DNA of 42,993 nt from Candidatus Pacearchaeota archaeon (GCA_016188895.1 JACPGZ010000046.1:1-42993), one strand, 5' to 3'; shown: positions 2,896 to 40,889, counted from the stretch's first letter. Translations and numbers: made by a program. The notes: a model not told the origin generated them from the sequence alone.

Positions 2896-2993
2896 TAATT
2901 GCCTCCGAACTTTCCATAAAAACATTATATCTAATTCGTATAAAAATTTAACCATTAGCAACCTTTTTAAACCTCCAATCTTCTAAATTTATG

Positions 2994-3346
2994 TAAGGTG
3001 GATAGCGAACTTCGGGTTCGTGCTGTAACAAGCAATCTTCTGAATAAGGGTAAACCCTTATCAACCCTGACTGGGAGTATGAGAAGAGAACCTGAGGAAG
3101 GTCCGTACATACCCATAGAAATATGGGACGCGCAAGCGAGCCAGTGTCTGAAAAGACACCTGTTGTGAAACAGAGCTCTGGAACAGAAACGACACCACTC
3201 TTGTGAGCGATGAAGAAATGAGCGAAGAAGCAAGAGAGCGGATGAAACGATCATCTTGGCTGATGCAACCTCTTTGAAGGGCTTAGTCAAATGTTCGCAT
3301 CTTTGTTCGAAAGACAAAGAACAGAATATGGCCTATTTCCACCTTA
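2994..3346 (+). ncRNA. rnpB: RNase P RNA (archaeal type)
   Basis: GC-rich block with CR-I-like GAGGAAGGTCCG (3094-3105), GTGAAAC (3165-3171), ACAGAAA (3183-3189) and CR-V-like ACAGAAtatGGCCTA (3321-3335). Terminal P1-like pairing TAAGGTGGA (2994-3002) with TCCACCTTA (3338-3346). The 116-aa minus-strand ORF here is spurious. Ends approximate. Confidence 0.65.
3044..3067 (+). repeat. 24-nt exact repeat copy A (ATAAGGGTAAACCCTTATCAACCC) inside the RNase P RNA P3-like hairpin
   Basis: Identical 24-mer recurs at 41182-41205. Here it sits inside a hairpin domain closed by TCTTCT (3036-3041) / AGAAGA (3082-3087). Confidence 0.9.
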
Positions 3347-3354
3347 CTTTTTCA

Positions 3355-10806: not shown

Positions 10807-10817
10807 GAAACAAGTAA

Positions 10818-15189: not shown

Positions 15190-16305
15190 TTAAAAAAGCC
15201 TGATTCTTTTTAAATTGTTCTGTAGGATTATAATTCCTGCAAGCAAAATGAGATTTGAAATAAACTCCAATGCTATTTTTAAGTATATATTTATGTCTAT
15301 ATGAGAGAATCCAATTGAAACAAAGACTATTGTGAGATAGCTCCACAAAAAAATCCAGAGCGAGTTATTGCTGAAAAAAATAAAGAATGCTTTGCACTTA
15401 CTCATAAAATCTGGGAGTTGATAAAATATTGTCAGTAATATTAAAGTTATAGATATTCCAAATATCAGGTAATATGGATTTGGAGGAGTTTTGTTTAGAG
15501 TAATGCTTGTATCTAAGCCAATGAAATTATAGATAGCATTTATTATAATAAAAGAAATTATTGCAATTATTGTTAAGGCTATTATTTTTTTCCTAAAACT
15601 GTCTTCAAAATATAATTTTTCAAGGTAAAATCCAAAGATAAATACCAAAGACCATCCTAGAACAAATGTTGCTATAAAAGAAAGAACAGATAGTGATGGT
15701 TTAATTATATTAACAAAACTTATATTTAGATAGTCATATGGATTTAAGGAATATTTAATTGATAAAATTATTGAAAATATATAAAATAAAAATAATAGAG
15801 TTATTGTAGTCCTGCCTTTTTTATAAATGTATTTTAAAAACGGAAATAAAAAGCCGAGCATTATCATAAGGATTATAATCCATTTTAAAATTATCCATCT
15901 AAATGGTATCTTCCAGATGCTTTGATAAGAGAAATAAGGAAATTTTTGGAAGATTCTTGTTGAAAAATCAGGCAGGAGGAAAGCTATGATTCCGTATATT
16001 AAAGCTGAAACAGCAATGTATATAAGCCAGGGGACAATAATTCTTTTAGCTCTTTTTTTAAAATATTGCAGTGTGTTTTTAATGTTGAATTTAATCTTTC
16101 TTGTTGAGTTGGATAACGAAAACCCTGATACAATTACTAGCGTAACAACACAGAAATTTAATATGTCTCTTAAAAATATAATTATGTTATTTGATGCATA
16201 GGATGATGAAGGCTGGAAATCTAGAGGGTATATAATATGAAGCAGAATTATTGCAATTATTGAGATGCTTCTTAAAAAATCAACTGCATCAACCCTTTTT
16301 CTCAT
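15190..16305 (-). CDS. Acyltransferase family 3 membrane protein
   Basis: 371 aa, about 10 TM helices; N-terminus VDAVDFLRSISIIAIILLHI matches the acyltransferase_3 start motif. Confidence 0.65.
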   Translation of the reverse strand: MRKRVDAVDFLRSISIIAIILLHIIYPLDFQPSSSYASNNIIIFLRDILNFCVVTLVIVSGFSLSNSTRKIKFNIKNTLQYFKKRAKRIIVPWLIYIAVSALIYGIIAFLLPDFSTRIFQKFPYFSYQSIWKIPFRWIILKWIIILMIMLGFLFPFLKYIYKKGRTTITLLFLFYIFSIILSIKYSLNPYDYLNISFVNIIKPSLSVLSFIATFVLGWSLVFIFGFYLEKLYFEDSFRKKIIALTIIAIISFIIINAIYNFIGLDTSITLNKTPPNPYYLIFGISITLILLTIFYQLPDFMSKCKAFFIFFSNNSLWIFLWSYLTIVFVSIGFSHIDINIYLKIALEFISNLILLAGIIILQNNLKRIRLF

Positions 16306-16345
16306 AAATTAAGCAAGAAAGATTGGTATAATAGACTTTCTATTT

Positions 16346-18509: not shown

Positions 18510-18909
18510 AATGCGAAAGAAAACATGGCTAAGGATTTGGGCAGTTGTAACTCTCATAAGAATAGTGCTTGCTCTTCCATTTGCAGCAGGCGAGCATGAG
18601 CTAGAATTAAATTGCGATAATGTTCTAAAAGAAAAGCTTGATGACTGCAAATATATTCTAAATAGTGATTTTAATGAAGAAGAAAAACAGGATTTAATTG
18701 ATATTTTAAACAGCCAATCATATAGTTATGAATATAATTGGGAAGCTGTAGAAGAAATACCCCAATCTGAAACAAAAACACAGGAAATAGATAATGATAC
18801 TATTCTTTTTGCTTGGGATGTTGCTGTTCTTATTTTTTTTAACTATTTTGTCTATTCAGTATTAACTAAATCCTCTTTCTTTGAAAAATGGCTGAATGTG
18901 GTCTCTTAA
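18499..18909 (+). CDS. Secreted/membrane protein of the T4SS-like operon
   Basis: 136 aa; N-terminal signal/TM, acidic middle, C-terminal TM; overlaps both neighbours. Confidence 0.5.
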   Translation: MLVKMRKKTWLRIWAVVTLIRIVLALPFAAGEHELELNCDNVLKEKLDDCKYILNSDFNEEEKQDLIDILNSQSYSYEYNWEAVEEIPQSETKTQEIDNDTILFAWDVAVLIFFNYFVYSVLTKSSFFEKWLNVVS

Positions 18910-19706
18910 ATCTAGCAACATGCCTTCCAGAAAAGTTCTTTCAATATCTTGTAAATATAATTAATGCTCCAATAAAACCTCTCTTATCTTTAGTTAAAGG
19001 ACTTCTTTCAGAGCCAATTAGCCTTTCTTTATTTGTAAATCTATGGGCGATTATTATCTATCTTATTTCCATGTTTTATGGATTGTTCTTATTGTATTCT
19101 GGCTTTAATTTTATGATTTCAGGTCATGATGTTCAGAAAAGAGAGCAGGCAAAAACATGGCTTAGAAATATTGTCATAATGATTATTCTTGTCCAAGCCT
19201 CTTTTCTACTTTATGAGATTGCTATTGAGCTTTCTTCTATATTGACAACAGCGGTCTTAAGTCTTTTAGATAAGAATTTTTTCCTATTAACATTTGATAA
19301 TATTATCAATATCGGCTTACAGCTTATTTTTTTCTTTGTTTATCTTCTTGCGTTGCTTCTCACTGCAATTATTCTTATCATCAGATATGTTATTGTTGCT
19401 GTTGGAGTTGTTTTCTTTCCAATAGGAATTTTCTTTTATTTCATTCCGCCTTTAAGGCAATATGGCTCTTTAATCTTAAATTTTTTAGGAATAGCTATCT
19501 TTATTACATTCTTTGATGCAATTATTCTTATTGGCTTCTCAAAATTGCTTGGAATTCAGCTTTTTAGCAGTATGAAAATTCTTGTTATGATTTCTGCTTT
19601 TCTTTTCATAGATGCATTAATGTTCTTTCTTATGTTTTTCTCGCTCATTAAAGCAGGTTTTAATCTTGCTACTAAAATAGGAGGAGTTGTCTCAAAGTTC
19701 ACATGA
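18888..19706 (+). CDS. VirB6/TrbL-like (CedA-like) polytopic membrane protein
   Basis: 272 aa with about 6 TM helices, immediately upstream of the VirB4-like ATPase with a 4-nt overlap. Confidence 0.5.
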   Translation: MAECGLLNLATCLPEKFFQYLVNIINAPIKPLLSLVKGLLSEPISLSLFVNLWAIIIYLISMFYGLFLLYSGFNFMISGHDVQKREQAKTWLRNIVIMIILVQASFLLYEIAIELSSILTTAVLSLLDKNFFLLTFDNIINIGLQLIFFFVYLLALLLTAIILIIRYVIVAVGVVFFPIGIFFYFIPPLRQYGSLILNFLGIAIFITFFDAIILIGFSKLLGIQLFSSMKILVMISAFLFIDALMFFLMFFSLIKAGFNLATKIGGVVSKFT

Positions 19707-22672
19707 GCTATGAAATCCCGCAACAGCTTGAATACAAGGAAAAAATCATCTTTGGCTTAACATTCAAGCAGTTAGCTTATTTATTTCTCTTTGCTCCTCA
19801 AGTGTTAATTATATTTTTTAAAACACCACTTCCTCTTTATTCAAAAATTGCTATTTCACTTCTTCCTTCATCTCTTGCAATAGGATTTATGTTTCTCAAT
19901 CTTGATTATCACATTGTAAGCTGGATGATTTGGCTGAAATTCAGAAAAACAAAAAATCCAAAGAAAATCGTTCAATTTATAGGTGTAAAGGAAATTAAGA
20001 ATAATTTGATTATTATGAATGATAAAAGAAAACTCGCTGTTCTTAAAGTTCAGCCTATTAATTTTTCAATTAAACCTCAAGGCTCTCAAGAATCTATTAC
20101 CTCTTTATTTCAAAAGCTCCTGAATGCAATTGACTTTCCTGTTCAGATTATTATGAATACAGAAACTCTTGATTTAGGAGATTATTTAGAAGCAATACAG
20201 AAAAAAATAGAATTGCAAGGTAATAAACTCTTTATTCATTTATTTAAGAAGTATAAGGAACACTTAGAATCTCTTATTTCCCAAAACAAAGTGATGAACA
20301 GGAACTTTTATATTATTATTCCGGAGAAAAGTGCAATAGATATTCAGATTAGCATTTGTGAGAGAAAATTAGATGCCCTTGACCTAAAAAGCTCTCGTTT
20401 GGATAATGAACAATTAAGAAAACTGATTGATAAATTCTTTGGCTTTCCAATGAACATTGAAAATAATCCTGCTTATATTAAAATTAATGAAACTTTTAAT
20501 AGAATTATTTTTGCTCATGGCTACCCAAGAAGCGTAGAAGTTGGATTTCTTGATAAAATAGTAAGCACATTAGGGAATTTTGATTTGTCGCTCCATATTG
20601 AGCCTTATCATATTGAAACCATGATGATTACTCTAAATAAGGAACTGCAAAAGCAAAGAGCAGATTTATATTCGGCACAAAAAAGAGAAATTATTAACCC
20701 AAGCTTAGAGATTAAATATGCAGATACGAAGAATGTTTTAGAAAATCTTCAGAAAGGCAAGGAAAAACTATTTAATGTAAGCCTTTATATTAATTGTAGG
20801 GCACAAAATCTTGAGGAGCTTAATCTCTTAACTAAGAGAATTGAGGCAGAGCTTAATTCTTTAATGATTATTCCTAAAATCCCCCAATTTCGCATGGCTC
20901 AAGGATTTCTTTCTTGCGCCCCTATTGCGAAAAACAGCCTTGCTATGAGGCGAAACATTACTACAGAGGCTTTATCAGCCTTCTTTCCTTTTACTTCTTC
21001 CTTTTTGCAGGCTGATGCAACAGGAGTATGGCTTGGATTAAACAAGAATAATATTCCCATTATCAAGGATATTTTCAAATTAAGCAATCCAAATGGATTA
21101 TGTCTTGCAAGTTCTGGCTCTGGAAAGAGCTACATGGCAAAATTGCTCATTTCTCGTTATCTACTTAATGGAGTTAAGGTTATGGTGATTGACCCCCAAG
21201 GAGAGTATAGAAATCTCGTAGAGCGATTTAATGGCCAAAGGATAGACTTAAGCAGAACTTCTGAAACCATGATTAATCCTTTAGATTTAATGGGACATGA
21301 ATATTCTGAAAAAAGGTTGGCACTAATGGATTTAATGCCCATTATGTTAGGAGAACTCACAGAACCTCAAAAAGCATTTCTTGACAAAGCATTGACAAAA
21401 GCTTATGAGAAGTATTGTATTAATGAAGCTCAAGAAACATGGAACAATCAGCCTCCAATTCTTGAAGATATTGTGCAAGTGTTAGAAGACATGGAAAAAA
21501 GAGCTATAACTCTTGAAAAAACAACAATTCATAGCCTCGTCAATAGATTAAGCATGTATACTGATGGGGTTTTTTCTTTCTTGAATAAGCATACTAAAAT
21601 AGATTTCAATAATAATTTTGTGTGCTTTGATATAGGAAGCATGCCTAAACAAGTAAAGCCCGTAGTTATGTTTCTTGTTCTTGATTATGTCTATATGAAG
21701 ATGAGAGAAGACATCCAGAGAAAACTCCTTGTCATAGATGAGGCATGGTCTCTTTTAGGAAGAACAGAAGATGCTTCTTATATTTTTGAAATAGTTAAGA
21801 CATGCAGAAAATTCAACCTCGCACTCTTCCTTATTAATCAAGAAGTAGAGGGTATGCTTTCATCAGAAGCAGGAAAATCCGTGCTTGCAAATACTTCCTA
21901 CACCTTACTTATGAGACAAAAACCAGCTGTCATGAAGAACGTGCAAGATACATTTTATTTGAGCAATGCAGAAAGAATTTCTCTTTTAACAGCAGAAGTG
22001 GGTGAGGGCATTTTATTGATGGATGATGAGCATTCTGAAATAAAGATTATTGCATCAGAAGAAGAGCATAAATTGATAACGACAAAGCCTGATGAAATTT
22101 TAGAGCAAAATTCCAAAAAACAAAAGCAAGAGAAACCGAAAAAGGTTTCGGAGCTTAAACCTTTAGGTGCGGAGAAACCTTTAGTTAAGATTAGCGTTGA
22201 TGAAAATAAAGGGTTTTACAAGCATAAAGATTTGAAACTTCCTGACATAAAGTATTTGATTAAGAAGAACTATAAACAAAGTCGCAATATCAATATTTCT
22301 GGCAGGAGCGAATTATATTTGCTTAAGCCGAGAAGAGGAGAATCTCTTGAACATTTTTTCTTAATTAAAGATATTGAGGCTTATCTGCAAAAACACGCAG
22401 ATAAAGTTGAGCTTTTTGAAACAACAAAGCCAGATATTATTTTTGAGATTAATGGAAAAAGATATGCAGTTGAAGTTGAAACAGGAAAAATCTTAACAAA
22501 AGATAAAAACAAACTGCAAAATAAGATTGAGAATTTGAAAAAAGAATATGATAATAATTGGTTTTTTGTTGTAACGAATTACAGATTTGCTTCTTCATAT
22601 AATCAATTAGGCAAGACATTCACAAGAAAAAACTTTTTGAAACAATTTCCAAAATGGCTCAAAAACACTTAA
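19703..22672 (+). CDS. VirB3(PrgI)-VirB4/TraC-like conjugation ATPase fused to a C-terminal PD-(D/E)xK nuclease-like domain
   Basis: 989 aa. N-terminal 2-TM PrgI-like segment (IIFGLTFKQLAYL). Walker A ASSGSGKSY (nt 21116-21130) and Walker B LLVIDEAWSL (nt ~21725-21748). C-terminal ~140 aa carries E...PDIIFE...AVEVETGK (nt ~22430-22489). Confidence 0.8.
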   Translation: MSYEIPQQLEYKEKIIFGLTFKQLAYLFLFAPQVLIIFFKTPLPLYSKIAISLLPSSLAIGFMFLNLDYHIVSWMIWLKFRKTKNPKKIVQFIGVKEIKNNLIIMNDKRKLAVLKVQPINFSIKPQGSQESITSLFQKLLNAIDFPVQIIMNTETLDLGDYLEAIQKKIELQGNKLFIHLFKKYKEHLESLISQNKVMNRNFYIIIPEKSAIDIQISICERKLDALDLKSSRLDNEQLRKLIDKFFGFPMNIENNPAYIKINETFNRIIFAHGYPRSVEVGFLDKIVSTLGNFDLSLHIEPYHIETMMITLNKELQKQRADLYSAQKREIINPSLEIKYADTKNVLENLQKGKEKLFNVSLYINCRAQNLEELNLLTKRIEAELNSLMIIPKIPQFRMAQGFLSCAPIAKNSLAMRRNITTEALSAFFPFTSSFLQADATGVWLGLNKNNIPIIKDIFKLSNPNGLCLASSGSGKSYMAKLLISRYLLNGVKVMVIDPQGEYRNLVERFNGQRIDLSRTSETMINPLDLMGHEYSEKRLALMDLMPIMLGELTEPQKAFLDKALTKAYEKYCINEAQETWNNQPPILEDIVQVLEDMEKRAITLEKTTIHSLVNRLSMYTDGVFSFLNKHTKIDFNNNFVCFDIGSMPKQVKPVVMFLVLDYVYMKMREDIQRKLLVIDEAWSLLGRTEDASYIFEIVKTCRKFNLALFLINQEVEGMLSSEAGKSVLANTSYTLLMRQKPAVMKNVQDTFYLSNAERISLLTAEVGEGILLMDDEHSEIKIIASEEEHKLITTKPDEILEQNSKKQKQEKPKKVSELKPLGAEKPLVKISVDENKGFYKHKDLKLPDIKYLIKKNYKQSRNINISGRSELYLLKPRRGESLEHFFLIKDIEAYLQKHADKVELFETTKPDIIFEINGKRYAVEVETGKILTKDKNKLQNKIENLKKEYDNNWFFVVTNYRFASSYNQLGKTFTRKNFLKQFPKWLKNT

Positions 22673-26327: not shown

Positions 26328-27047
26328 ATGGAAAATCAAGATGAAATTAATAAGAAGGAAAAAGAAATATATGAAGGGTTTAGTGATGAGGAAAAACAAA
26401 ATTCTAAGAAAGTACTTGAAAGTTTAACAAAAGAAGAAAAACGGGTTCTTATGATAATGCAGTCTGGACTAAGTTTTGATGAAATAGCAGAAAAAAGCGG
26501 TTTTAATCCTGATAAGCTAGACTTAATTCTGGAAAGCTTAGAGAAAAAAAGGCTTATATTTGGTAAGGATACGAATGAATATAACAATCAGTTTGGTCGT
26601 GGCTTGACTTATAGTCTTGGCTTATTTATCTCATATGAGGGGAATTTTGAGAGATATTTAAGTGAAGCCTTAGTAATAGAAACAAATGATTTATTTGAGT
26701 GGCCATATGACCCAAGAAAAGCAGATCCTAAAACAAGAGCGACTGCAGAAAAAAAGATAAGAAAAGTAAAAAAGAAGATTGAGGGACCTACATCTGTACG
26801 CTGGTTTTCAGAATCAGAAATATACATTAGGAATATAGAAATACCAACCTCTTTACATAATGAGATTCAAGAAAGATTGAGAGAATTACGAACCAAATGT
26901 CACAACTGGGCATTTCCCAAAGATACAGAAAAGTTTCCTAAAAGTGAGAATGTTTATTGGGCACTTGAGGAAGCAAAAGAGCTTTTAAGGCTTATTGATG
27001 AGCATCATGGAATTAAGACCTTTAAAGCTAAAAATAACTTGAACTAA
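26328..27047 (+). CDS. Winged-HTH domain protein
   Basis: 239 aa; EEKRVLMIMQSGLSFDEIAEKSGFNPDKLDLILESLEKKRLIF resembles a MarR/TrmB-like wHTH. Confidence 0.5.
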   Translation: MENQDEINKKEKEIYEGFSDEEKQNSKKVLESLTKEEKRVLMIMQSGLSFDEIAEKSGFNPDKLDLILESLEKKRLIFGKDTNEYNNQFGRGLTYSLGLFISYEGNFERYLSEALVIETNDLFEWPYDPRKADPKTRATAEKKIRKVKKKIEGPTSVRWFSESEIYIRNIEIPTSLHNEIQERLRELRTKCHNWAFPKDTEKFPKSENVYWALEEAKELLRLIDEHHGIKTFKAKNNLN

Positions 27048-27097: not shown

Positions 27098-27264
27098 TAA
27101 GCAAAGAAGATTTACTAATTGATGTTACTAAAACAGATATAGAAAAACGCCTTATCAAGACAGAGAAAGAAAATACTCTTCTCAAAGAGAAGATGTTGGA
27201 CATGGAGCAACAAATGAAGAAGATTTTAGAGTTGGTTGATAAAGCAATTGGGAAGATTAGTTAA
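27098..27264 (+). pseudogene. Remnant of a second tyrosine-integrase gene (C-terminal tail only)
   Basis: Encodes SKEDLLIDVTKTDIEKRLIKTEKENTLLKEKMLDMEQQMKKILELV, homologous to the last ~55 aa of the integrase at 39723..40889 (SEEDLLIDVTKTEIEKRLLKTEKDKEILQEKIESMEKQMGKILELL). Roughly three-quarters nt identity by eye, opposite strand. Confidence 0.7.
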
Positions 27265-29690
27265 AATTCTATATTTGTTTTTAAATGATTTAAAATACTA
27301 ACTTGGTCAATTGTATCTGATTTTCTCTTTGCATTATTGATTATCTTCTTGACATCTTGCTTATCTAAAATAATAACTCTTCCTTTAGATTTATTCATAT
27401 AATCTTTAAAAGCAAGGCCTAAATTAATTCTAAGAGGGCTGTCCAATTTTTTATTTATCATAAATTGTTCATATAAAGTAATAAGATCTTGTAAATTTAA
27501 AAGAACTATCTTTCCAGACCATCCCCGATATCTAATTATATAATCAGAGAAACTCTTAAATTGTTTTAGATCTAAACTATTGGATATAACCATAAAACAA
27601 GAAAGATTTTTTGAGAATGCTTTAATTTCTGGTGCTTGATTTGTTCTTTTGATATAATCTCTAGCCTTTCTTTTCTCATCCATATCCAAATCATAAATAT
27701 TAGAAGAATATTTACAATCATAAATCAATGAAAAACCCTTTTTAGGAGTAATGTTGGAAGTTATCCCGTACAATCCATCTGGAACCGCTTTTCTTTTTTG
27801 ATCCTTTCCCCATTTGTAAATACCATAAAAACATGCTCTCAAAAGAGGGTAACATAAATCTTCAAATTCATCTCCATTAGAAACATATTTTTTATCTCTA
27901 ATCTCGATAAGTTTTTGATTAGCATCTTTTGTTTTTAATATCAAAAGGTCTTCAAACTTCTTAATTACTTTTGTGTTTATTTCTACTTTTATATCTTCAT
28001 CTTTATCAAAAATAAGATTATATGCAAATATCTCAGATGACAAATTATAACTATTTTCTCTAATTTCTTTATCTATAATTATTTTCACAATGGGTATCAT
28101 AGAGATTTCGATTTTGTTTAAAATTTTTCCAATTCTCCTCACAGATTCAAGATAGAGATAGAATTCGGTTTTAGTATCTTTAAAATAAACAAAAGGATAT
28201 TTAGTTTTTCCTATTTTATGAAGTCTTATAGATATCCTATCTTTACCATATATTTTTTTAAGGCGTTTCACAATAAATTCAAACAAAGCATCACGATTTA
28301 TCACTATATATTCCCTTGGTTCCAGTTTTTTAATATTGGCACCACATTTAGGGCAGTTATTTATATTAACATTATAAAAACGGTGAGCTGAAGTATTATC
28401 AACACAAACATAACATACATCTTCATTTGAATGAAGGAGTCCTTTAGAAGCAATTTGAACATATACCTCTTTTTCTTTAGAAGACAACTCTGAAGGAACT
28501 TTACCAATTATATTCTTAAAAATTTCTATATCACTAAGCTTTGATTCTTCTCTTTCGTAAGGAGCATGAATTTCTATCCCAAAATCTTCATTTAATATTT
28601 TTGTAATCTGTTTATATCTAAATTCTGATAGCCCCCTATTAGTGAATATAAAAGATATCGCGTTGGGATCTTTTCTATCTATTAATATAGTCTGGGTAAA
28701 ACCATTCAAATCAAGTTGAAAACTTCTTAAATTATGTATGTTTTTTGGATCTACAAAACTATTATCAATAAAAGTAGACATGCATTGATTAAGTGGTGCT
28801 CCATGTTTGGATTCCCTAAAAGTACATTGGCAATTGACTCCCTTTTCAAGCTTATTAAAAACAAGTTGTATAATTTTTGCATTCTTTGATTGGTACTTAA
28901 TTATCTTTGAGATTATATCTTTTATATTGCTCTTTGTTTTTATGCTCTCAACATAAATTTTATAATTTAAATCTTTAAGAATCAGAGTGAATAAATCTAA
29001 GATTTTTGGATTTCCAGACCTTATCTCTATTTGATTTTTAGTTAAGTCAAATTTTATAAAATAAATCCCTCTTCTTCTAATTGATTTACTCTCCCCATAA
29101 CCTGTAACAACATCCTCTTTTTTTGATTTTTCAAAACAGAAGAAAACTTCACTATTTGATTTAAAATTTCTGGAAGATCTATTCTTTCCTAACTTAAGTT
29201 TTTTTGTGTAATTTTGGATATTAATATTCTTGAAAGAAGAAATAGTATCTTCTGAAATCCCTGGATTTATAGACCATATTTCTAACATTCTTGTTTTATA
29301 GTAGAGAAAATAAAAAAAACTATCAGTGATTTTTTCTCTATCATTAATATATAAATAAATAAGGCCTAATAATGGATTATCTATATACTCTTTTTTAAGT
29401 TTAAGCTTCGTGAAAAAATCTCGTAATGAATCAATCTTACCCTTGAGATAATTAAATAATCCGTAAAATTCTTTTCCCTTTAGAGTCTTGAATATCTCTT
29501 TTATTTTGTCTTTTTCATTCACATTTATCTCATTCACATTAAAAAATTTTAAGAGAATTTGTTTATCAGTAAAACATGGCTCTATTCTCTGTTTGAAGGT
29601 AGCTAGCCAGTTATCGTTAAGACCATCCAATTTTCTTGGGCTAACTCCTATATTAAGCCAAAAATCTTCATTTTGAATTGTTTCTTGCAT
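27261..29690 (-). CDS. Large uncharacterised protein with central zinc ribbon and C-terminal FokI-like PD-(D/E)xK nuclease domain
   Basis: The ORF track starts at a TTG (29732); the ATG at 29690 is preferred because of the conserved promoter spacing. CYVC...CPKC ribbon at nt ~28335-28435. C-terminus VPDGLYG...SLIYDCKYSSNIYDLDMDEKRKARDYIKR parallels FokI KPDGAIY...VIVDTKAYSGGYNLPIGQADEMQRYVEE. Confidence 0.65.
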   Translation of the reverse strand: MQETIQNEDFWLNIGVSPRKLDGLNDNWLATFKQRIEPCFTDKQILLKFFNVNEINVNEKDKIKEIFKTLKGKEFYGLFNYLKGKIDSLRDFFTKLKLKKEYIDNPLLGLIYLYINDREKITDSFFYFLYYKTRMLEIWSINPGISEDTISSFKNINIQNYTKKLKLGKNRSSRNFKSNSEVFFCFEKSKKEDVVTGYGESKSIRRRGIYFIKFDLTKNQIEIRSGNPKILDLFTLILKDLNYKIYVESIKTKSNIKDIISKIIKYQSKNAKIIQLVFNKLEKGVNCQCTFRESKHGAPLNQCMSTFIDNSFVDPKNIHNLRSFQLDLNGFTQTILIDRKDPNAISFIFTNRGLSEFRYKQITKILNEDFGIEIHAPYEREESKLSDIEIFKNIIGKVPSELSSKEKEVYVQIASKGLLHSNEDVCYVCVDNTSAHRFYNVNINNCPKCGANIKKLEPREYIVINRDALFEFIVKRLKKIYGKDRISIRLHKIGKTKYPFVYFKDTKTEFYLYLESVRRIGKILNKIEISMIPIVKIIIDKEIRENSYNLSSEIFAYNLIFDKDEDIKVEINTKVIKKFEDLLILKTKDANQKLIEIRDKKYVSNGDEFEDLCYPLLRACFYGIYKWGKDQKRKAVPDGLYGITSNITPKKGFSLIYDCKYSSNIYDLDMDEKRKARDYIKRTNQAPEIKAFSKNLSCFMVISNSLDLKQFKSFSDYIIRYRGWSGKIVLLNLQDLITLYEQFMINKKLDSPLRINLGLAFKDYMNKSKGRVIILDKQDVKKIINNAKRKSDTIDQVSILNHLKTNIEF

Positions 29691-29730
29691 AAAAAACCAA
29701 TAAAATCCACCTATAATTATCTTTCTATTC
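29691..29730 (-). promoter_or_regulatory. Conserved promoter element GAATAGAAAGATAATTATAGGTGG-N16-ATG
   Basis: The first 19 nt are identical to the element at 30197-30236. The TTATAGGTGG-N16-ATG part is shared with the mod upstream region (35452-35486). Confidence 0.6.
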
Positions 29731-30196
29731 AAAAGGAAATCTCTGACTTTTTCTCTGAATTAAAATAATTATGTAATTTTTGCTTTATACTCTTACTTTT
29801 ATAAATTTTCCCAGTTTCATCGCGGTACCATGCAAAATCGCAATCTCTTCCTCTTAATTCATCTAAAGTAAACCATTCACTATGAGATTTTCCTTCCCCT
29901 AGTTCTCTAGGCAAACTAATTGTTTTAATATTTATTAAATCATCTTTTCCCACACGAATGCCAACAGATGAAAGAGTTACTGGTCTTCTTCCTTTGTTTA
30001 TTGCCTTAACAAAAAAGAATGGGCCTTCTGCTCCCTTACCGCTTCCCATTACACCGAAACTAGCTTTCACCTTTATTTTTGCTTTGTCTCGGTTATAATT
30101 ATATAAACTTAAAATTATCCCTAATGTTGAAATAATTGATCCATAAATTGCTAAGAGCATTATATAATTTTTTACAATAAATTCTAATATTGTCAT
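29729..30196 (-). CDS. Small membrane-anchored protein (N-terminal TM plus beta-rich domain)
   Basis: 155 aa; one TM (IMLLAIYGSIISTLGIILSL), no recognisable domain; located between res and the FokI-like gene. Confidence 0.6.
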   Translation of the reverse strand: MTILEFIVKNYIMLLAIYGSIISTLGIILSLYNYNRDKAKIKVKASFGVMGSGKGAEGPFFFVKAINKGRRPVTLSSVGIRVGKDDLINIKTISLPRELGEGKSHSEWFTLDELRGRDCDFAWYRDETGKIYKSKSIKQKLHNYFNSEKKSEISF

Positions 30197-30236
30197 TTAA
30201 ATCTTAAAAAATCCGTATATAATTATCTTTCTATTC
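30197..30236 (-). promoter_or_regulatory. Conserved promoter element GAATAGAAAGATAATTATATACGG-N16-ATG
   Basis: Same element and the same 40-nt distance to the ATG as at 29691-29730. Confidence 0.6.
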
Positions 30237-30253
30237 CAGCTCTTCTCAGATTA

Positions 30254-33007
30254 TTAAGCATGTTTTTTAATTATGTCCTTAACATCCGAAGGCCTAAAAG
30301 AAACATCCCATGTCCATTTTCCAAATCTTCCATCTCTATTAACTGCATTAATCCACTCTTGTAAGTATTCTCTTTTAGTATTATTCTGTTGATCATCTTT
30401 CCCTTTAACTTCCAAAATTAGCATTTGATTATTATTGAGCTTTATCAAAAAATCTGGATAATATTTGTGAATAATACCCTTATAAATATAATTTATAACA
30501 AATCCGATATGGTCATTCTTCACCCAGGATTTCACATCTTTATTTCTGTCAAATTCAAATGCTTCTGACGCCTCCCATCCGCTATCAATTACAACATGGC
30601 TAATATGAGACTTTTTAACTAATTCACATCTTTTACTAGTATACCAAGTCATCATTTTTCCTGTAGACTTTATTGGTTGTTCTTTATCATAAACAGCCAC
30701 TGCCTCTTCAGTATTCTCAAATCTAATTGCACTAAATAGATGCTGAACTATCTTACTCATATTTAATAAAATTAAAACTCTTCTTTTTAGTTCTTCATTA
30801 TAGGTTTTGCTCTTAATAATAAGCTTGTCAGAATTAAGAAAATCTTCAACAATTTTAACTAATTGCATAAGTAAACTATCCTTATCTCCTTGCCAACTCG
30901 GTTGCATTTGTTCATAAATATCTCTTGTTGTTTCAAAGATAAGCCTTTGCATTCTATATTTTTTTCCCAAACTTTCTAGTTCGATTTCCCTTATCTTTTC
31001 TACATTTGGTTTACCCTCAATAACAGGAGCCATCTCAACTAACATAGGTGTATCTTCAGGATTGAGTTCGAATGACTTTACTTTTTTTGTGTCTAAAGAT
31101 AGTTTTGGTCTATAAATATGGTTAATCCTCAAGACATTAGGCCATTTGATCTCGTATTCTTTTTTATTACCTTCAACAAAAATTCTTGTTTTTGGTTTTG
31201 GTGGAGCAGGAATTGTTTCTCCTGTTCCTTCATGAGGCAAGAAAGTAAATGGAACTCCAAAAATATTGACATATTCTGCATCAAAAAGTCCTGTTTCAGG
31301 ATTTACTTCATAAGAGGTTCTTCTTAGTCCTCTTCCAACAACTTGTTCACATAACAATTGACTACTAAACGCTCTTAAACCCATAATGTGAGTAACTGTT
31401 TTTGCATCCCATCCTTCAGATAACATTGCGACAGCTATTATATTTTGTATTTGTTCACCCATTTCACCAACTTTTCCAACTGTATCAACCTTCTTTCTTA
31501 GGATTTCGGCTTGTTCCTGTTTCGACAATCCATTTTCCTCTTTTATTGCTTCCTCTGTATCTTTCTCTTCTGCTTTTTTTAATACATCTGAATCTATTCT
31601 AAGCATTCTTTCAGTATCTTTAAGTTCATCAATTCTTATTTTTCCCTTTTTAAATGAGTTCTCAACTCTTGCCGCAGTCTCGGTTCTGTTACAAACCGTG
31701 ATTAAAACAGGAGGAACTTTAACTTTTTCCTTTCCCCATAGTTTTTTTGTTTCAAGCCAATCTTTTCCTAAAAAATAATAAGCATTTACAACTAAGTCGG
31801 GAAGAGGATCTGTTTCTTCAGCTTTTTTATTTAAACTTGCTTTCACTTCTGAGTCCATGTATATATGATAAAATCTAGATTTCATATCTTTTGTGAGAGT
31901 TCCATCATCTCTTATTACAACTCTTGGTGTTTTGACTAAGCCAGATTCAATTGAGTCATTTAAACCAAAATCACTTACAATCCATCCAAATAATGTCTCT
32001 TCATAAGTCCTTTTACCAGATGGAGCAAAGGGTGTTGCAGAGAAGTCATGGCATGATAAAATTCCTCTAGTTTTATTTATTCTATCTAATCCCCCTATCC
32101 AGATTGTTGCTTCTTCTGCACTATCTTTATCTTCACTAACCCTTTGGTATTTTCCTTCAGCTTTTATGTTTGTTCTCCATGCATGGTGAGCTTCATCATT
32201 TATAATTAAAATATTCTTAGCGTCAGAAAAATCTCCCAGAACTCTTTTTGTAAAAGCTTCATCACTTTCCTCTCCTACTTTTTTTCTCATAACTGGTGGC
32301 AAGCTTTTTGCATCTAATGGAGCTAACATATGCCAGTTAATTATTTTTATTTTTCCTTGTCTTAATTTATCAAATTCTGAAGAAGGAATCATATCAAATT
32401 CTGAATAATAATTTTGTTCATTTGAAGATTTTAATACCTGTAGCCTACTTTTAACTGTTAATCCTGGTGCAACAACAAGGATATTTTTTGAAAAACGATT
32501 ATCTTTAGGATAAGTTATTTTATTTAAAATCTGCCAAGCTATTAACATTGCCATAACTACTGTTTTCCCTGTTCCAGTTGCCATTTTTGAACAAATTCTT
32601 TGAAATTCTCCACCATCATCAGGGATTTTTATTCCTTGTTTTTCACTTGCTGGTGCTTCAACAAGCCAGATTAAAGTTTCAATTGCCTCTAATTGACAAA
32701 AGAAAAGCTTCATCTCTCTTTCAGGATTTTTCCAATATTCAAGAAGACTTTTTGTTATGCTTGTTACCCCGGGATACCCTGACTCTCTCCATTTATCAAC
32801 TCTCTTTCTTATTTGATTTACTAGTGGGAGTTCAATAAAATGCCCTGGATCATCAAATGATTTTGAACTTTCTGAAGCAACAACATATCCTGCTGGACGC
32901 CTTCCATCAACTATCTCAAACTTTCTTATTTCCCTTACATACTTTAAGTGAGTTTTTGGTTTTTCATAAGGGCTACTTATAATTAAATGGTCTGTTGTAT
33001 TTGTCAT
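30254..33007 (-). CDS. res: Type III restriction enzyme Res subunit (SF2 helicase plus C-terminal endonuclease)
   Basis: 917 aa; MATGTGKT (motif I), INDEAHHAW (DEAH), C-terminal YYPDFLIK...LILEVKGKD PD-(D/E)xK motif; 4-nt overlap with mod. Confidence 0.85.
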   Translation of the reverse strand: MTNTTDHLIISSPYEKPKTHLKYVREIRKFEIVDGRRPAGYVVASESSKSFDDPGHFIELPLVNQIRKRVDKWRESGYPGVTSITKSLLEYWKNPEREMKLFFCQLEAIETLIWLVEAPASEKQGIKIPDDGGEFQRICSKMATGTGKTVVMAMLIAWQILNKITYPKDNRFSKNILVVAPGLTVKSRLQVLKSSNEQNYYSEFDMIPSSEFDKLRQGKIKIINWHMLAPLDAKSLPPVMRKKVGEESDEAFTKRVLGDFSDAKNILIINDEAHHAWRTNIKAEGKYQRVSEDKDSAEEATIWIGGLDRINKTRGILSCHDFSATPFAPSGKRTYEETLFGWIVSDFGLNDSIESGLVKTPRVVIRDDGTLTKDMKSRFYHIYMDSEVKASLNKKAEETDPLPDLVVNAYYFLGKDWLETKKLWGKEKVKVPPVLITVCNRTETAARVENSFKKGKIRIDELKDTERMLRIDSDVLKKAEEKDTEEAIKEENGLSKQEQAEILRKKVDTVGKVGEMGEQIQNIIAVAMLSEGWDAKTVTHIMGLRAFSSQLLCEQVVGRGLRRTSYEVNPETGLFDAEYVNIFGVPFTFLPHEGTGETIPAPPKPKTRIFVEGNKKEYEIKWPNVLRINHIYRPKLSLDTKKVKSFELNPEDTPMLVEMAPVIEGKPNVEKIREIELESLGKKYRMQRLIFETTRDIYEQMQPSWQGDKDSLLMQLVKIVEDFLNSDKLIIKSKTYNEELKRRVLILLNMSKIVQHLFSAIRFENTEEAVAVYDKEQPIKSTGKMMTWYTSKRCELVKKSHISHVVIDSGWEASEAFEFDRNKDVKSWVKNDHIGFVINYIYKGIIHKYYPDFLIKLNNNQMLILEVKGKDDQQNNTKREYLQEWINAVNRDGRFGKWTWDVSFRPSDVKDIIKKHA

Positions 33008-35451
33008 TTTAAACTAATAATCTTTAATGATTCTATTCCTCTATCATCGATAATTTTTACAGCAATTTGATTATTCTTTCCTGCTTTAAACGGAAGAGAA
33101 ATATTTCCAGAGTATTTTTCTATCAAATCTTCGTCAATAAATGCTTTAAGGTTTTTAGCGAGTTTATTCCATCCTTCTCCCTCTCCTAATTCCCACATTG
33201 CAATTTTTGAAGTATCTCCTGATTCAATCTCTCCGGTTTTTGTGTTATAATAATCAAAACCATTGATCTGAACAATGTATTTTTCTCCTTGTTTCTTTAT
33301 TTCAATATCTGGCTGACCGATAAGCCAAAATGATTCATTGCTTGATCTTTTCTTTTTTAAGTCTTGAGTAAGCAAATCAGTATTCATTTGTGCTTTTATT
33401 ACATTTACTCCCGGCCATTTTAATTCATCAATGTCTTTGGCTGCTTCTGGGTCAAATTGGAATGATGCAAAAACAATTATTTTCGGTTTTGGGACTAATT
33501 TTTGAGCTTCCTCAATCGCTAATTCAACTTGCCTTTGTTCTAATGGAGCATATTCTGGCCCAAAAGAAACAACAACTTTCTCTCCTGTTTTTGTTTCTCC
33601 TTCTGCATGTAACCATCTTGTTGCAGGAAGTGGTTCAATTCTAAAGAATTCTAATTTTTGTCCACCTTTTCCCCTTATCCCAGAAGATAATAATTCATCT
33701 GTCCATTCATTTTGTCTTAGAGTTTCTCCTGAACGAGCAACACTATTATCTGCCTCTTGTTTTATTTTTACTGCTTCAATTTCATCAAAACTTCTTACTC
33801 TTTGAGATGGAACAGCTTCAAATGTAAAAGGTCCTGTAACTCTTTTTTTATTTTTATCAATTAATGGCTGATCATAAAGAGTTTCTTGTTGTGCAGGTTC
33901 ATTATTTGCAATTGAGCCAAGAGTAATGTGAGGTACGATTTTGTATTTAAAACCACTACTAACTCCTTCTTGAGGATGGGCCAGTTCATAGTATTCAAAT
34001 AAAGAAGTCATGAGTCTTTGTTTGGCAAGAGTAATTGCAACTCTTGAAGTATCGCAAGTTATCCATCTTCTTCCCCATTGTTCAGCAACATAAGCAGTTG
34101 TTCCAGAGCCACAAGTTGGGTCTAATACTAAATCTCCCGGGTCTGTTGTCATAAGAATACATCTATTAACCACTGCGGTGTTCGTTTGAACAACATATAC
34201 TTTGTTTTGTTCAGCCCATAAATCTGTCCATGTCGCATTAATCTTCATATATGGAAAATCACTATAATATTTTTTATATCTTAATTGATTTCCAGATTCA
34301 AATAACCTATTTAGTTTAGCTAATTGTTTCATTGAATTTTCTGAGACTCTCCAACCATTGACAGGATCATATGTTTTACCATTATAGCTAAATTTATATC
34401 TTGTTTGTAGGGTACTTGCTACAAGAGGCATTGTTGTAAAAACTTTATTTCTGTCAAAGTTTATTTTCTTTTCTTTTGCTTCTCTATAACTTATGAAACT
34501 ATTTTTATATTCTACCAAATCAGAGTCGTCAAAGTCCTCTGCTCTTTCAGTAAATAATTCACGATATTTCATTTGACTCTTATCTTTTGCATACCATATA
34601 ATAAAATCGCAAACTCCCGAAAGTAGTTTAGTCGGTTTAGTGCTTGCAGTTCTAAATTGTATTATTGTGATAAAGTTATCCATTCCGAAAACTTCATCCA
34701 TAATTTCTCTAACATGATGCAAGTTCTCATCTGAAATTTGAACAAAACAACTTCCACTTTCATGCAATAACTCATAAGAAAGTTTTAATCTACCTCTAAG
34801 ATAAGTAAGATAAGAATGAATTCCTAATTCCCAAGTATCTCTAAATGCTTTAATCATCTCTGGCTCTTGAGTCAAATCTTCATCTTTTTGATCTTTAACA
34901 TCTCTTTTATTAACAAATGGTTGAAAATTTGAGCCATATTTAATCCCATATGGTGGATCAATGTATATCATCTGAACTTTTCCAGCCATGCCCTCTTTCT
35001 CTATTAAGGAATTCATAATAAGTAAAGAATCACCAGCGATTAATCTATTTGACCAATCTTGACTATGTTTATAAAACTCTATTGCTTCTCTTATTGGAGG
35101 ATTATTTTCTTTTAATTCGAAATAATGAAATAATGTTTGTTGTTCTTTCTCTTCCCTGCTTTTTACCTTTTCTATTATTGTTAAAGGATCAATTCTTTCA
35201 TGAACGTGCAAAGAAACAGTATCTACATTAAACGATTGTCCTTCTGTTTTTCCTGCCCATTGTAATTGAGGATCTATATGAGGATCATACTGATATTTTT
35301 TCTGCCCATTAAGATGATCTGTTTCTGCTGTAACAAGACCGACAGGAGGATTATTTGCTCTTTTTTCATTTTGATAGGTATATTGTTTTACTTCTATTTT
35401 TTCATATATCTTCCTCTTCCCAGTCTTCTGCTTATGTTTCTTTCTTACCAT
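33004..35451 (-). CDS. mod: Type III R-M Mod methyltransferase (beta-class N6A/N4C)
   Basis: 815 aa; DPPYGIKYG (motif IV) precedes DPTCGSGTTAYVAEQ (motif I); N-terminal YDPHIDPQLQWAGK, typical of Type III Mod proteins. Confidence 0.85.
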   Translation of the reverse strand: MVRKKHKQKTGKRKIYEKIEVKQYTYQNEKRANNPPVGLVTAETDHLNGQKKYQYDPHIDPQLQWAGKTEGQSFNVDTVSLHVHERIDPLTIIEKVKSREEKEQQTLFHYFELKENNPPIREAIEFYKHSQDWSNRLIAGDSLLIMNSLIEKEGMAGKVQMIYIDPPYGIKYGSNFQPFVNKRDVKDQKDEDLTQEPEMIKAFRDTWELGIHSYLTYLRGRLKLSYELLHESGSCFVQISDENLHHVREIMDEVFGMDNFITIIQFRTASTKPTKLLSGVCDFIIWYAKDKSQMKYRELFTERAEDFDDSDLVEYKNSFISYREAKEKKINFDRNKVFTTMPLVASTLQTRYKFSYNGKTYDPVNGWRVSENSMKQLAKLNRLFESGNQLRYKKYYSDFPYMKINATWTDLWAEQNKVYVVQTNTAVVNRCILMTTDPGDLVLDPTCGSGTTAYVAEQWGRRWITCDTSRVAITLAKQRLMTSLFEYYELAHPQEGVSSGFKYKIVPHITLGSIANNEPAQQETLYDQPLIDKNKKRVTGPFTFEAVPSQRVRSFDEIEAVKIKQEADNSVARSGETLRQNEWTDELLSSGIRGKGGQKLEFFRIEPLPATRWLHAEGETKTGEKVVVSFGPEYAPLEQRQVELAIEEAQKLVPKPKIIVFASFQFDPEAAKDIDELKWPGVNVIKAQMNTDLLTQDLKKKRSSNESFWLIGQPDIEIKKQGEKYIVQINGFDYYNTKTGEIESGDTSKIAMWELGEGEGWNKLAKNLKAFIDEDLIEKYSGNISLPFKAGKNNQIAVKIIDDRGIESLKIISLK

Positions 35452-35486
35452 AAAAATTATAAAATAACCACCTATAAAAAACTATC
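35452..35486 (-). promoter_or_regulatory. mod promoter element TTTTATAGGTGG-N16-ATG
   Basis: Shares TTATAGGTGG and the exact 16-nt spacing to the ATG with the element upstream of the FokI-like gene. Confidence 0.55.
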
Positions 35487-35616
35487 TTGTGCCTCATAAG
35501 AATGTATAATTAGACTCCATTCTTATTCATCTGACGCTTTCCAAGGTAAATATCTATTCTATTTTGTCTAATTTATGGCCTTCAACTTCTCCCTTAAATC
35601 ATCCCAGTCACATACT

Positions 35617-39722: not shown

Positions 39723-40889
39723 TTAATTTTCTACTTCAATAATCTGGACTTTACTTCCTAAGACTTTTAATAATTCTAAAATTTTCCCCATTTGCTTTTC
39801 CATACTCTCAATTTTCTCCTGCAAAATTTCCTTGTCTTTTTCTGTTTTTAGAAGTCTTTTTTCAATTTCTGTTTTTGTAACGTCAATTAACAAATCTTCT
39901 TCGCTTATAGTGTCTTTCATTCCAAGAAGCTCACTATAATAATGAATCTTATCGCTTTTCTTCCATCCAAATCTGTATTTTAATGCTGACTCAGATTTAT
40001 ATCGTGGAAGCCAATAACAACATGAGATATGTCTGAAATCATACAAACTTATCTCACAATATTTCGCTCCTGCTTCACTTACTCCATTACCGAATACTTT
40101 TAATGCCAGCCTTTTAAGATATTGATTAGCAATCAGCGGATTTATTTTAAATAAATAATCCTCTTTTTTCAGTTCTTTGTTTTTAATATAATCTTTCAAT
40201 AAATCTGAACATAACATTAATTTAATTCTTCTTCCAAAAGTTTTGCTCATTTCTTCTCTTATTTGAAGCTCTTTAAAATCTTTATACAGGTCAGAAACTT
40301 TAATATTAACTAATTCGGTTGGAGCTCTTATCCCCGTGTCTAGTAAAAACATGATTAAAACTTTGTACTCGTATTTTGCATTATCACACAATTTTTTTAC
40401 CTGCTCTTCATTTAAATAAACCCAATCTGGTTTTTCTGGACTTGTATCTAAATCAATAGTTATATCTGGAATTTCATCTCCGTTTTTTTTGTTGACTTTT
40501 TGATGCCAGTGCCAAAAAGCCTTGAAGATCTTAGCATAGGTATCCACTGATTTGTAATTTCCACCATCTATTTTCTTTATATCCCCTCTTTTCATATCTG
40601 AAAAGAAGCTAATTAATTGCTCTTCGTTTATTTTAATTATGCTATCAAGATTATACATCTCTTTGAATTTAATTGCAAAGAAAATAAGCCTGTTTCTTAA
40701 TGAGTTTAACCTTGCATAACTTCTTGAGCCCTTGATACTCACAGGAGATATATTTATTCCTTTTTCCATTTCTTTAAGGTACTTAAGAATAATGTCAGAG
40801 TTTTCTTTACTTAAACGAAGGATTCTAAGCTTATTATTTTCCTTCCATTTAATCCATCTTTCTTTGTTTTTATGCGGGTCTATTTTCAT
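39723..40889 (-). CDS. Tyrosine recombinase/integrase
   Basis: 388 aa; LLDTGIRAPTEL (box I Arg), YDFRHISCCYW (His/Arg box II), KIHYY (candidate catalytic Tyr); C-terminal coiled-coil tail. The start lies 79 nt from the tRNA-Glu 3' end. Confidence 0.8.
   Translation of the reverse strand: MKIDPHKNKERWIKWKENNKLRILRLSKENSDIILKYLKEMEKGINISPVSIKGSRSYARLNSLRNRLIFFAIKFKEMYNLDSIIKINEEQLISFFSDMKRGDIKKIDGGNYKSVDTYAKIFKAFWHWHQKVNKKNGDEIPDITIDLDTSPEKPDWVYLNEEQVKKLCDNAKYEYKVLIMFLLDTGIRAPTELVNIKVSDLYKDFKELQIREEMSKTFGRRIKLMLCSDLLKDYIKNKELKKEDYLFKINPLIANQYLKRLALKVFGNGVSEAGAKYCEISLYDFRHISCCYWLPRYKSESALKYRFGWKKSDKIHYYSELLGMKDTISEEDLLIDVTKTEIEKRLLKTEKDKEILQEKIESMEKQMGKILELLKVLGSKVQIIEVEN

Follow-up and report, generated by a model that had tools for sequence, protein, structure and literature searches.

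Most genes embedded in Type I restriction-modification (R-M), BREX, DISARM and Hma loci serve in defence, and 96.7% of the embedded genes share the orientation of their host system, PrrC being the classic case (Payne et al., bioRxiv 10.1101/2024.01.29.577857). In the Ronin system, hsdS and hsdM are joined by RonA, a 61-amino-acid (aa) protein with a single transmembrane segment that is toxic alone, caged by HsdMS and freed by ArdA or Ocr, and the same study describes cell death triggered by the Type III system EcoR22I on Ocr as well as the embedding of PrrC in EcoprrI (bioRxiv 10.1101/2023.04.06.535777). Here we describe a locus in a stretch of 42,993 nucleotides (nt) from Candidatus Pacearchaeota archaeon (JACPGZ010000046.1; the whole stretch is hereafter the window), whose minus strand carries four co-oriented open reading frames (ORFs) between 27261 and 35451 in the order mod-res-small-large, i.e., a Type III R-M pair followed by the genes of a 155-aa membrane protein (small) and of an 809-aa protein with a zinc ribbon and a FokI-type nuclease domain (large). 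The interpretation that we prefer, and hold at a confidence slightly short of even, is that an ordinary Type III R-M operon, carried by an integrative element, has acquired two embedded or appended accessory defence genes that are not subunits of the Type III enzyme.

An earlier, sequence-only reading of this DNA had placed four genes here and had taken the first two for a canonical Type III pair with a 4-nt overlap, and both statements were borne out by the ORFs and by the family searches. Mod matches PF01555 (2e-31) and the PADLOC model MTase_III PDLC03632 (2e-135), and its translation has DPPY at about residue 165, ahead of a motif-I-like CGSGTT at about residue 445. Res matches ResIII (5e-13) and, end to end, the NCBIfam family NF046055 'BPTD_3080 family restriction endonuclease' (1104 bits, cutoff 800), is matched weakly by the PADLOC REase_III models (5e-8), and carries ATGTGKT, DEAH and a C-terminal PDF..EVK, while the mod stop and the res start overlap in the ATGA at 33004-33007. 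Given these family matches, motifs and overlapping codons the pair is confirmed as Type III; judged from its sequence the operon looks like a working one, and the pair itself is ordinary. As in EcoP15I-like systems and in those with a BPTD_3080-type Res, mod precedes res with overlapping codons, and a beta-class methyltransferase is combined with a superfamily 2 (SF2) helicase bearing a PD-(D/E)xK nuclease; the locus differs from them only by the two appended genes.

Neither of these two genes belongs to a recognisable family, as had also been claimed: Pfam, NCBIfam and PADLOC give no match for either protein, PHROGs give nothing significant for the small one and a single E = 0.008 match to an unnamed PHROG for the large one. 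As neither matches any model in the PADLOC comparison, both families are undescribed there. They resemble the embedded defence genes of Payne et al. in being extra co-oriented genes in or after an R-M operon, many of which encode nucleases, and differ from them in having no PADLOC-DB v2 match, in residing in a Type III system of a DPANN archaeon, and in being appended after res rather than nested.

The reading draws on where relatives of the two genes are found. A word-indexed search retrieved two close relatives of the large protein (49% and 46% identity), and an exhaustive profile search of 1.84 billion representatives (50% clustering) retrieved 164 members at E<=1e-3 and 26 at E<=1e-30, mostly full length (800-870 aa). 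Those looked up are each a 'hypothetical protein', from Woesearchaeota, Bacillus smithii and Paenibacillus, and PADLOC on 40 members gave only 2 stray single-member matches. Among the 17 loci read for this family (related loci carry L numbers), all four close archaeal ones have the large gene at the 3' end of an R-M array, which is of Type III once, Type I twice and Type II once. The loci L002-L004 read integrase...hsdR-x-hsdM-hsdS-small(157 aa)-large-168 aa with 4-nt overlaps and are the one recurrence of the small-large pair, here behind a Type I system and with 46% identity for the small and 46% for the large protein. L035, whose large protein is 43% identical, reads hsdR-x-hsdM-73aa-hsdS-93aa-large without the small gene, its 93-aa protein being unrelated, multi-transmembrane and overlapping the large gene by 8 nt; L001, also without the small gene, has GmrSD, an AlwI-type R-M system with two methyltransferases, a MORC-like ATPase and then large. 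Same-strand hsdM/hsdS/hsdR genes lie within 7 kb in six of the 12 Firmicutes genome loci, and the remaining six have no hsdM/S/R within that distance and no methyltransferase among the scanned neighbours, which are only glycosidases or ABC transporters in L021 and L026, other defence or mobile-element genes being near L017, L019, L023 and L024. The non-Type-I Firmicutes loci hold an ABC-3C system, a MORC-like ATPase, a serine recombinase or a DprA/SLOG protein, all Firmicutes loci lack the small gene, and the one further locus from a metagenome scan (L029) has no R-M nearby. The link between the large family and R-M is strong but not obligatory; the R-M systems concerned are of different types, and the family brings no dedicated methyltransferase with it.

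This bears on how the large protein might spare its own genome. The sequence-only reading had noted that no second methyltransferase is present, which holds for the scan of flanking ORFs (170 aa or longer, up to about 5 kb away), and had offered the large protein as a second effector protected by the same Mod. The latter is unlikely, and self-protection would not come from Mod methylation, since the methyltransferase next to relatives is of Type I, of Type II or missing altogether. In a wider form of the idea the large protein depends on whichever methyltransferase lies next to it, either by sharing its protection or by docking on Mod/HsdMS for target recognition in place of Res/HsdR. This we consider highly unlikely, even though the constant place at the end of the array, directly after hsdS or res on the same strand, and the FokI-type domain, the classic example of a module that cuts without specificity and leaves recognition to another module, would both suit it. 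The partners differ in type and hence in recognition mechanism, half of the 12 Firmicutes loci have none of the hsd genes nearby, the protein brings about 600 residues of N-terminal domains of its own, a DNA-binding fold included, and in the window its gene has a promoter copy of its own and a different G+C.

In six of the 12 Firmicutes loci a conserved soluble gene of ~113-171 aa stands directly downstream of large (Table 1). Its L017 member has no Pfam match and its L020 member no PADLOC match, and a lineage-specific partner, e.g., an immunity or regulatory subunit, is possible. Kinship to the small protein was tested for this ~145-aa partner, the 168-aa gene of L002 and the 93-aa gene of L035, all of which were rejected as unrelated. 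Two other neighbours recur. A MORC-like GHKL ATPase (HATPase_c_3) adjoins large in L001 (8387-9964, directly upstream; Morc6_S5, weak MzaB match) and lies 1.5 kb downstream of it in L023 (7061-8536), which may be a recurrent association, and small multi-transmembrane proteins unrelated to ours occur just upstream of large in L035 (9727-10008, 8330-8551) and L029 (1188-1661), either as a meaningful 'membrane partner' theme or as an artefact of AT-rich genomes.

The small family comprises 113 homologous clusters, those with names being all DPANN, and was read in 11 distinct contexts, eight of which are in or beside Type I/III R-M operons. Five are Type I operons in which the small gene directly follows hsdS (L002, L008/9, L013/14, L031 and L033), with a 4-nt overlap in four and a 1-nt gap in the fifth; in the three Type III contexts it follows res (the window), stands between mod and res with an overlap with mod (L032) or is convergent to res (L010). 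L015 has the gene beside a C5-methyltransferase, and R-M is lacking in L005, where it is next to a related integrase, and in L030, where it is among toxin-antitoxin genes. The nuclease subunit gene, hsdR or res, is present in the window, L002, L008, L013, L031 and L033. The small family is habitually wired into Type I/III operons of DPANN archaea, usually by translational coupling to hsdS or mod, and the finding that both extra genes are non-randomly linked to R-M genes elsewhere is thus supported for each family.

What follows the small gene is different nearly every time: the 809-aa-type nuclease twice, unannotated genes of 274, 240, 365, 427 and 90 aa, a 249-aa gene with a faint HEPN similarity once, and in L032 a NYN gene that directly follows and matches the experimentally validated HEC-09 (1.5e-7). 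In L031 a further NYN-domain gene is the third ORF behind small, past ORFs of 85 and 66 aa, SLFN/AlbA genes are also among the followers, and a match to PDC-M58A was obtained for another neighbour. In L005 the closest relative of the small protein (83% identity) has an unrelated gene of 427 aa behind it, and the 46%-identical one (L002) is paired with the large nuclease, a partner swapping that argues against a tight, co-evolving small-large partnership. Remote kinship of the downstream partners (274, 240, 365, 427 and 168 aa) with each other or with the large family was rejected as well (hhalign P>=0.2). The four-gene composite module that the sequence-only reading had put forward as a candidate is not a fixed unit in these contexts, in which the R-M partner changes type, large occurs without small in L001, L035 and Firmicutes, and small is re-paired in L005. 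Of the co-conservation that it had expected, the linkage of each family to R-M stands, separately, whereas the pair as such recurs once only.

It is quite improbable, in our judgement, that small and large form a two-gene system of their own in the style of Rex or Kiwa, i.e., a membrane sensor that controls a DNA-binding nuclease and uses the R-M operon only as a landing site. Such a system would explain why the pair recurs behind another R-M type at 46%/46% identity and with a 4-nt overlap, why large is again preceded by a small membrane protein in L035 (unrelated, multi-transmembrane, 8-nt overlap), and it would have a model in lambda RexA, an RdgC-fold protein with non-specific DNA binding whose partner, RexB, is a membrane protein (PMC11077077). 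However, no membrane partner is seen in L001 or in Firmicutes, where six loci have the soluble ~145-aa downstream partner instead, the 83% relative of the small protein and most others pair with unrelated genes, PADLOC finds no KwaA/KwaB or other match, RexA is not among the top 50 Foldseek matches of the large protein, and small hydrophobic ORFs are common in AT-rich genomes.

The large protein starts at an ATG whose equivalent Met also begins the homologues. In a 40-sequence alignment no variation is seen at E610, G628, P637, D658, K660 and Y679, and position 638 is occupied by D or E; in the ribbon C426xxC429...C446xxC449, for which weak zinc-ribbon matches were obtained, C429 and C449 are invariant and C446 is conserved in at least 90%. 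These conserved columns give a zinc ribbon and an E...PD...DxK nuclease site. AlphaFold on a 3-sequence alignment yielded a mean predicted local distance difference test (pLDDT) score of 49.8 and an unusable nuclease domain, and on the 40-sequence alignment a pLDDT of 86.1 and a predicted template-modelling score (pTM) of 0.70. Foldseek matched the latter model to FokI (2fok, prob 0.99, E=2e-4) and to Nt.BspD6I (5liz/5liq, prob 1.0) in the PDB, and among viral models to a phage 'restriction endonuclease' (root-mean-square deviation 3.6 A, 154 columns). A profile of the C-terminal 225 residues aligned with the FokI cleavage domain by hhalign at P=0.0013, placing PDG, DxK (DTK in FokI), YxL and the next helix in register. 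HMM searches with the single protein and with the family profile against PDB sequences gave zinc-ribbon noise only and did not find FokI. Precomputed tables list PF09254.19 (FokI_cleav_dom) without a weak mark for three members (P0001-P0003) and have no match for P0117, and the current Pfam-A reports FokI_cleav_dom in none of the 40, the three closest giving no match at a limit of E<=10 either, a discrepancy that may be a Pfam model-version effect. The invariant residues, Foldseek and hhalign together sustain the earlier assignment of a zinc ribbon and a C-terminal FokI-type domain. The modelled domain shares the PD...DxK, the motif order and the fold with FokI and Nt.BspD6I (PF09254), which would imply dimerisation-dependent cleavage; the protein differs from FokI in that its N-terminal 600 residues are apparently unrelated to the FokI recognition domain and in that it has no cognate Type II methyltransferase.

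The confident model holds a further feature that the sequence-only reading had not named, a predicted RdgC-like DNA-binding fold. Its match to E. coli RdgC (2owl_A, E=5e-5, prob 1.0) extends over 303 columns, i.e., the whole of that protein, CENP-L/N and Iml3, which are relatives in fold, are also among the matches, and phage RdgC-type 'recombination-associated proteins' are among the viral ones. Proteins of this kind, RdgC, RexA and Iml3-Chl4, bind DNA non-specifically as dimers, and lambda RexA acts with a membrane partner in phage exclusion (PMC11077077). The likeness, with RdgC, CENP-L/N and Iml3 as top Foldseek matches, belongs to the model; it comes without sequence similarity and, unlike in those proteins, the fold here shares one polypeptide of ~800 aa with a nuclease and a zinc ribbon. 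In a literature search we met no RdgC-like fold fused to a restriction-type or defence nuclease and no link between KwaB and RdgC, RexA alone being relevant.

The same structural results speak to whether the large protein is a modification-dependent (Type IV-like) enzyme that cuts modified viral DNA, comparable to Mrr/McrBC near EcoKI or to BrxU in BREX. A single large nuclease without ATPase and without an obligate methyltransferase, typically co-located with Type I systems, would look much like this, and GmrSD-like enzymes are often embedded in Type I/Hma loci (bioRxiv 10.1101/2024.01.29.577857), L001 having GmrSD nearby. We nevertheless rate it as quite improbable: no SRA, EVE, YTH or SBD fold is among the Foldseek matches of the whole model, the DNA-binding part resembles the non-specific RdgC, and no Pfam Type IV domain is found in the 40 members save a marginal PvuRts1I_N (E=0.003).

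The small protein has a single hydrophobic segment at residues 12-30 (mean Kyte-Doolittle 2.14, family median 1.76) and no second one, so that hydropathy agrees with the single N-terminal transmembrane helix seen earlier. The C-terminal flank of this segment carries a charge of +4, from which the positive-inside rule predicts an N-out, C-in topology with a cytoplasmic C-terminal domain. The ~120 C-terminal residues are conserved and show only weak similarities of a beta-sandwich type.

This protein and its position invite comparison with Ronin and PrrC/EcoprrI, with which the locus shares an effector in an R-M operon and, at the level of the family, a small single-transmembrane protein tightly linked to hsdS/hsdM in five Type I operons; in the window the gene follows a Type III res instead. 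Applied here, a guard or back-up arm would have small, large or both caged by HsdMS or Mod until a viral anti-restriction protein disables the R-M enzyme and so frees them, with membrane damage or indiscriminate DNA cutting and abortive infection as the outcome. The main argument for it is how tightly hsdS and small are joined: in four of the Type I operons the start of small lies 4 nt within the hsdS stop, in the fifth it comes 1 nt behind that stop, and in L032 small overlaps mod. The presence of the small family in R-M operons in eight of 11 contexts, the precedents of Ronin, EcoR22I and PrrC (bioRxiv 10.1101/2023.04.06.535777) and the RNase-type abortive-infection effectors among the variable genes behind small (NYN/HEC-09, HEPN-like) point the same way. 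We still consider a guard arm unlikely, as two small-family contexts (L005, L030) and half of the Firmicutes large-family loci lack adjacent R-M, a nuclease subunit, be it res or hsdR, is kept here but missing from Ronin, and no anti-restriction trigger is known for DPANN viruses. Moreover, RonA has 61 aa as a minimal transmembrane toxin against 155 aa with a conserved, folded, beta-rich domain in the small protein. PrrC, for its part, is an ABC-ATPase/HEPN anticodon nuclease, whereas no ATPase is present in the added genes of the window, Pfam and PADLOC giving no ATPase or HEPN match for either protein.

A more elaborate variant would make the DPANN small protein an adaptor that is coupled to HsdS/Mod, tethers the methyltransferase complex to the membrane and couples interchangeable nucleases to it (the RdgC-FokI DNase here, NYN/HEPN RNases elsewhere), i.e., a modular, R-M-guarded back-up immunity in which RdgC-FokI would be a new clamp-and-cut nuclease class released upon R-M block. 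We regard this scenario as improbable.

Under the preferred reading of accessory genes on an ordinary operon, an integrase-bearing element would carry the R-M operon and that operon would have received two accessory genes at its 3' end, each under its own copy of a promoter of the leaderless type. Of their products, the small one would be membrane-anchored with a cytoplasmic beta-rich domain, and the large one a DNA-targeting effector whose RdgC-like module may bind DNA non-specifically and probably does so as a dimer, while its zinc ribbon and helical domains may serve as regulatory or contact elements. FokI domains cleave after dimerising, and two of the FokI-type PD-(D/E)xK domains would cut upon dimerisation. 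Gene content, folds, catalytic motifs and the recurrent genomic linkage to R-M are what the data show, and from these we infer a function in defence, dimeric clamping of DNA and independence from Mod.

Several observations weigh against this interpretation. Both samples of loci are small and were partly picked for long contigs, the scan of viral contigs (IMG/VR) contained no locus of either family, neither protein has a known sensor domain, and the PADLOC models, PDC and HEC candidates included, match neither family. The Foldseek template-modelling scores are low (0.16, 0.36), the query having been a whole multi-domain model, and the N-terminal profile, when aligned with E. coli RdgC by hhalign, gave E=0.36, i.e., no sequence-level homology, so that the RdgC likeness is structural only. 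That the gene so consistently comes next to hsdS may reflect a physical tie to the R-M complex, as a guard arm would have it, and not independent hitch-hiking. Finally, G+C falls from ~32.4% in mod and res to 30.6% in small and 26.5% in large, which is compatible with a separate acquisition of the added genes without proving it.

The sequence-only reading had argued for co-regulation from one upstream element shared at identical spacing by three transcription units. Two exact copies of the 19-nt GAATAGAAAGATAATTATA do exist and bracket the small gene, the 21 nt that follow them are about half identical, and the distance to the ATG is 21 nt in all three cases; the mod copy, however, is degenerate, shares just AAGATA and TTATA, has a 4-nt insertion and lacks the ATAGAAAG part. 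The core ATAGAAAG-N4-TTATA has four matches with at most one mismatch against 0.43 expected, one of them, the third exact copy, at 16327-16343 on the minus strand, 21 nt before the ATG of an acyltransferase gene (PF01757, ORF 15190..16305) that is unrelated and 14 kb away. A 1-mismatch copy lies at 17230-17246 (minus strand) inside the Fic gene. Many genes of the window have a TTTATAAAT-type box that ends 21-24 nt before the ATG, and ~21-24 nt is the geometry expected of archaeal TATA boxes that drive leaderless mRNAs. A search of the related loci for AAAGATAATTATA, the 13-nt core of the 19-nt element, gave no match. Because an unrelated gene carries the core, the spacing is generic and the mod copy is degenerate, the element is no evidence for operon-specific co-regulation, and the argument built on it falls by a condition that the sequence-only reading had itself named. 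Most plausibly it represents a promoter type of the genome or of the integrative element that was locally duplicated, and these data suggest a promoter class common to genes of this region or element. The large gene is best read as having its own promoter copy in the window, whereas small and large are translationally coupled in L002.

The setting of the locus is that of a DPANN genome with a probable integrated element. The window contains an archaeal RNase P RNA (3094-3349, plus strand, 89.6 bits), a tRNA-Phe(GAA) (4064-4138, plus strand) and a thermosome gene, the small-protein relatives that bear names are all annotated 'Nanoarchaeota archaeon', and the large-family relative P0133 is from Woesearchaeota; the host is therefore a DPANN (Nanoarchaeota-type) archaeon of ~32% G+C. 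Between ~15 and 41 kb lie genes for a Fic protein (16487-17410), a protein like type IV secretion system (T4SS) pilins (18888-19706), a VirB4/TraG/PrgI-like ATPase (19703-22672) and a tyrosine integrase (39723-40889), and window positions ~15000-41000 are a probable integrated mobile element. Conjugation-type genes are unusual in DPANN genomes. The ORFs that flank the locus encode a radical-SAM protein, a YbaK-like protein, helix-turn-helix (HTH) proteins, a glycosyltransferase and the integrase, and since the integrases beside three small-protein cassettes (the window, L002 at 214-1365 and L005 at 9804-11120) are 54-69% identical, one integrative-element family seems to ferry R-M and accessory cargo between DPANN genomes.

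With related integrases flanking the cassettes in the window, L002 and L005, T4SS-like and Fic genes in the window region, and RdgC being a recombination modulator (PMC11077077), the two genes might instead serve the element itself, e.g., in recombination or replication control, post-segregational killing or exclusion of competitors, and not in defence. That is very unlikely in our view, given that the linkage is specific to R-M, lies inside operons and spans Firmicutes chromosomes as well as DPANN elements, and that the conserved FokI-type catalytic site points to DNA cleavage.

Table 1 Features of the locus in the window, and positions of the downstream partner in Firmicutes loci
Feature	Position	Strand	Description
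mod	33004..35451	-	Type III DNA methyltransferase, 815 aa; beta-class N6/N4 methyltransferase with long C-terminal extension
res	30254..33007	-	Type III-like restriction subunit, 917 aa; SF2 helicase and C-terminal PD-(D/E)xK
small gene	29729..30196	-	155 aa; N-terminal membrane anchor and conserved beta-rich C-terminal domain
large gene	ORF 27261..29732, coding 27261..29690	-	809 aa from the ATG at 29690
large, residues 1-132	29295..29690	-	all-helical N-terminal domain (secondary structure of the model)
large, residues ~135-420	28431..29288	-	alpha/beta region taken as RdgC-like module (boundaries inferred)
large, residues 426-449	28344..28415	-	CxxC...CxxC zinc ribbon
large, residues 460-555			second alpha/beta domain (inferred architecture)
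large, residues 564-598			long helix (inferred architecture)
large, residues ~600-745	27456..27893	-	FokI-type PD-(D/E)xK domain: E610, P637-D638, D658-x-K660, Y679
large, after ~745 to 809			helical tail (inferred architecture)
19-nt element GAATAGAAAGATAATTATA	30218..30236	-	ends 21 nt before the small ATG; inferred archaeal B recognition element (BRE)/TATA-type promoter
19-nt element GAATAGAAAGATAATTATA, second exact copy	29712..29730	-	overlaps the small stop codon; ends 21 nt before the large ATG
mod upstream element, degenerate	35473..35488	-	AAGATAG-TTTT-TTATA; TATA ends 21 nt before the ATG
Firmicutes downstream partner	L017 12600-13115
Firmicutes downstream partner	L018 12573-13058
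Firmicutes downstream partner	L020 12592-13029
Firmicutes downstream partner	L021 12685-13026
Firmicutes downstream partner	L024 6618-7064
Firmicutes downstream partner	L025 11698-12138

Defence genes embedded in R-M operons and small transmembrane effectors linked to hsdMS are already known, and it is the two protein families and the recurrent DPANN order 'hsdS/mod - small membrane protein - variable nuclease' that appear undescribed. Should the preferred reading hold, Firmicutes and DPANN archaea would share a new family of defence nucleases, defined by the large protein with its RdgC-like DNA-binding module and FokI-type cutter, and the small protein would be the first membrane component resident in R-M operons to be described in archaea. 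DPANN archaea have been reported with few recognised defence systems (PMC12988326), a gap that accessory genes hidden in their R-M operons would help to explain. A FokI-type domain on a new DNA-binding scaffold would also be of interest for tool building, and the Firmicutes homologues, e.g., Paenibacillus WP_213584958.1, make the hypothesis testable in tractable hosts.

Some minor observations concern the neighbourhoods. A second small gene, of 125-136 aa, recurs between hsdR and hsdM/hsdS of DPANN Type I operons (L002 5632-6009, L008 5012-5422, L013 5944-6345 and L035 6450-6857); no Pfam match was recorded or found for it, and it is absent from the window. DUF2779 proteins lie a few genes upstream of small or large genes in the unrelated loci L010 (6222-7682), L015 (4504-5964) and L001 (713-2194). 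In the window, the listed ORF 2967..3317 is probably not a gene, because the archaeal RNase P RNA overlaps it on the opposite strand. A 239-aa ORF on the plus strand (26328-27047), convergent with the large gene, has weak N-terminal HTH-like matches (Csa3/CARF-HTH, sigma-70 region-4-like, E ~0.002-0.07) and may encode a regulator.

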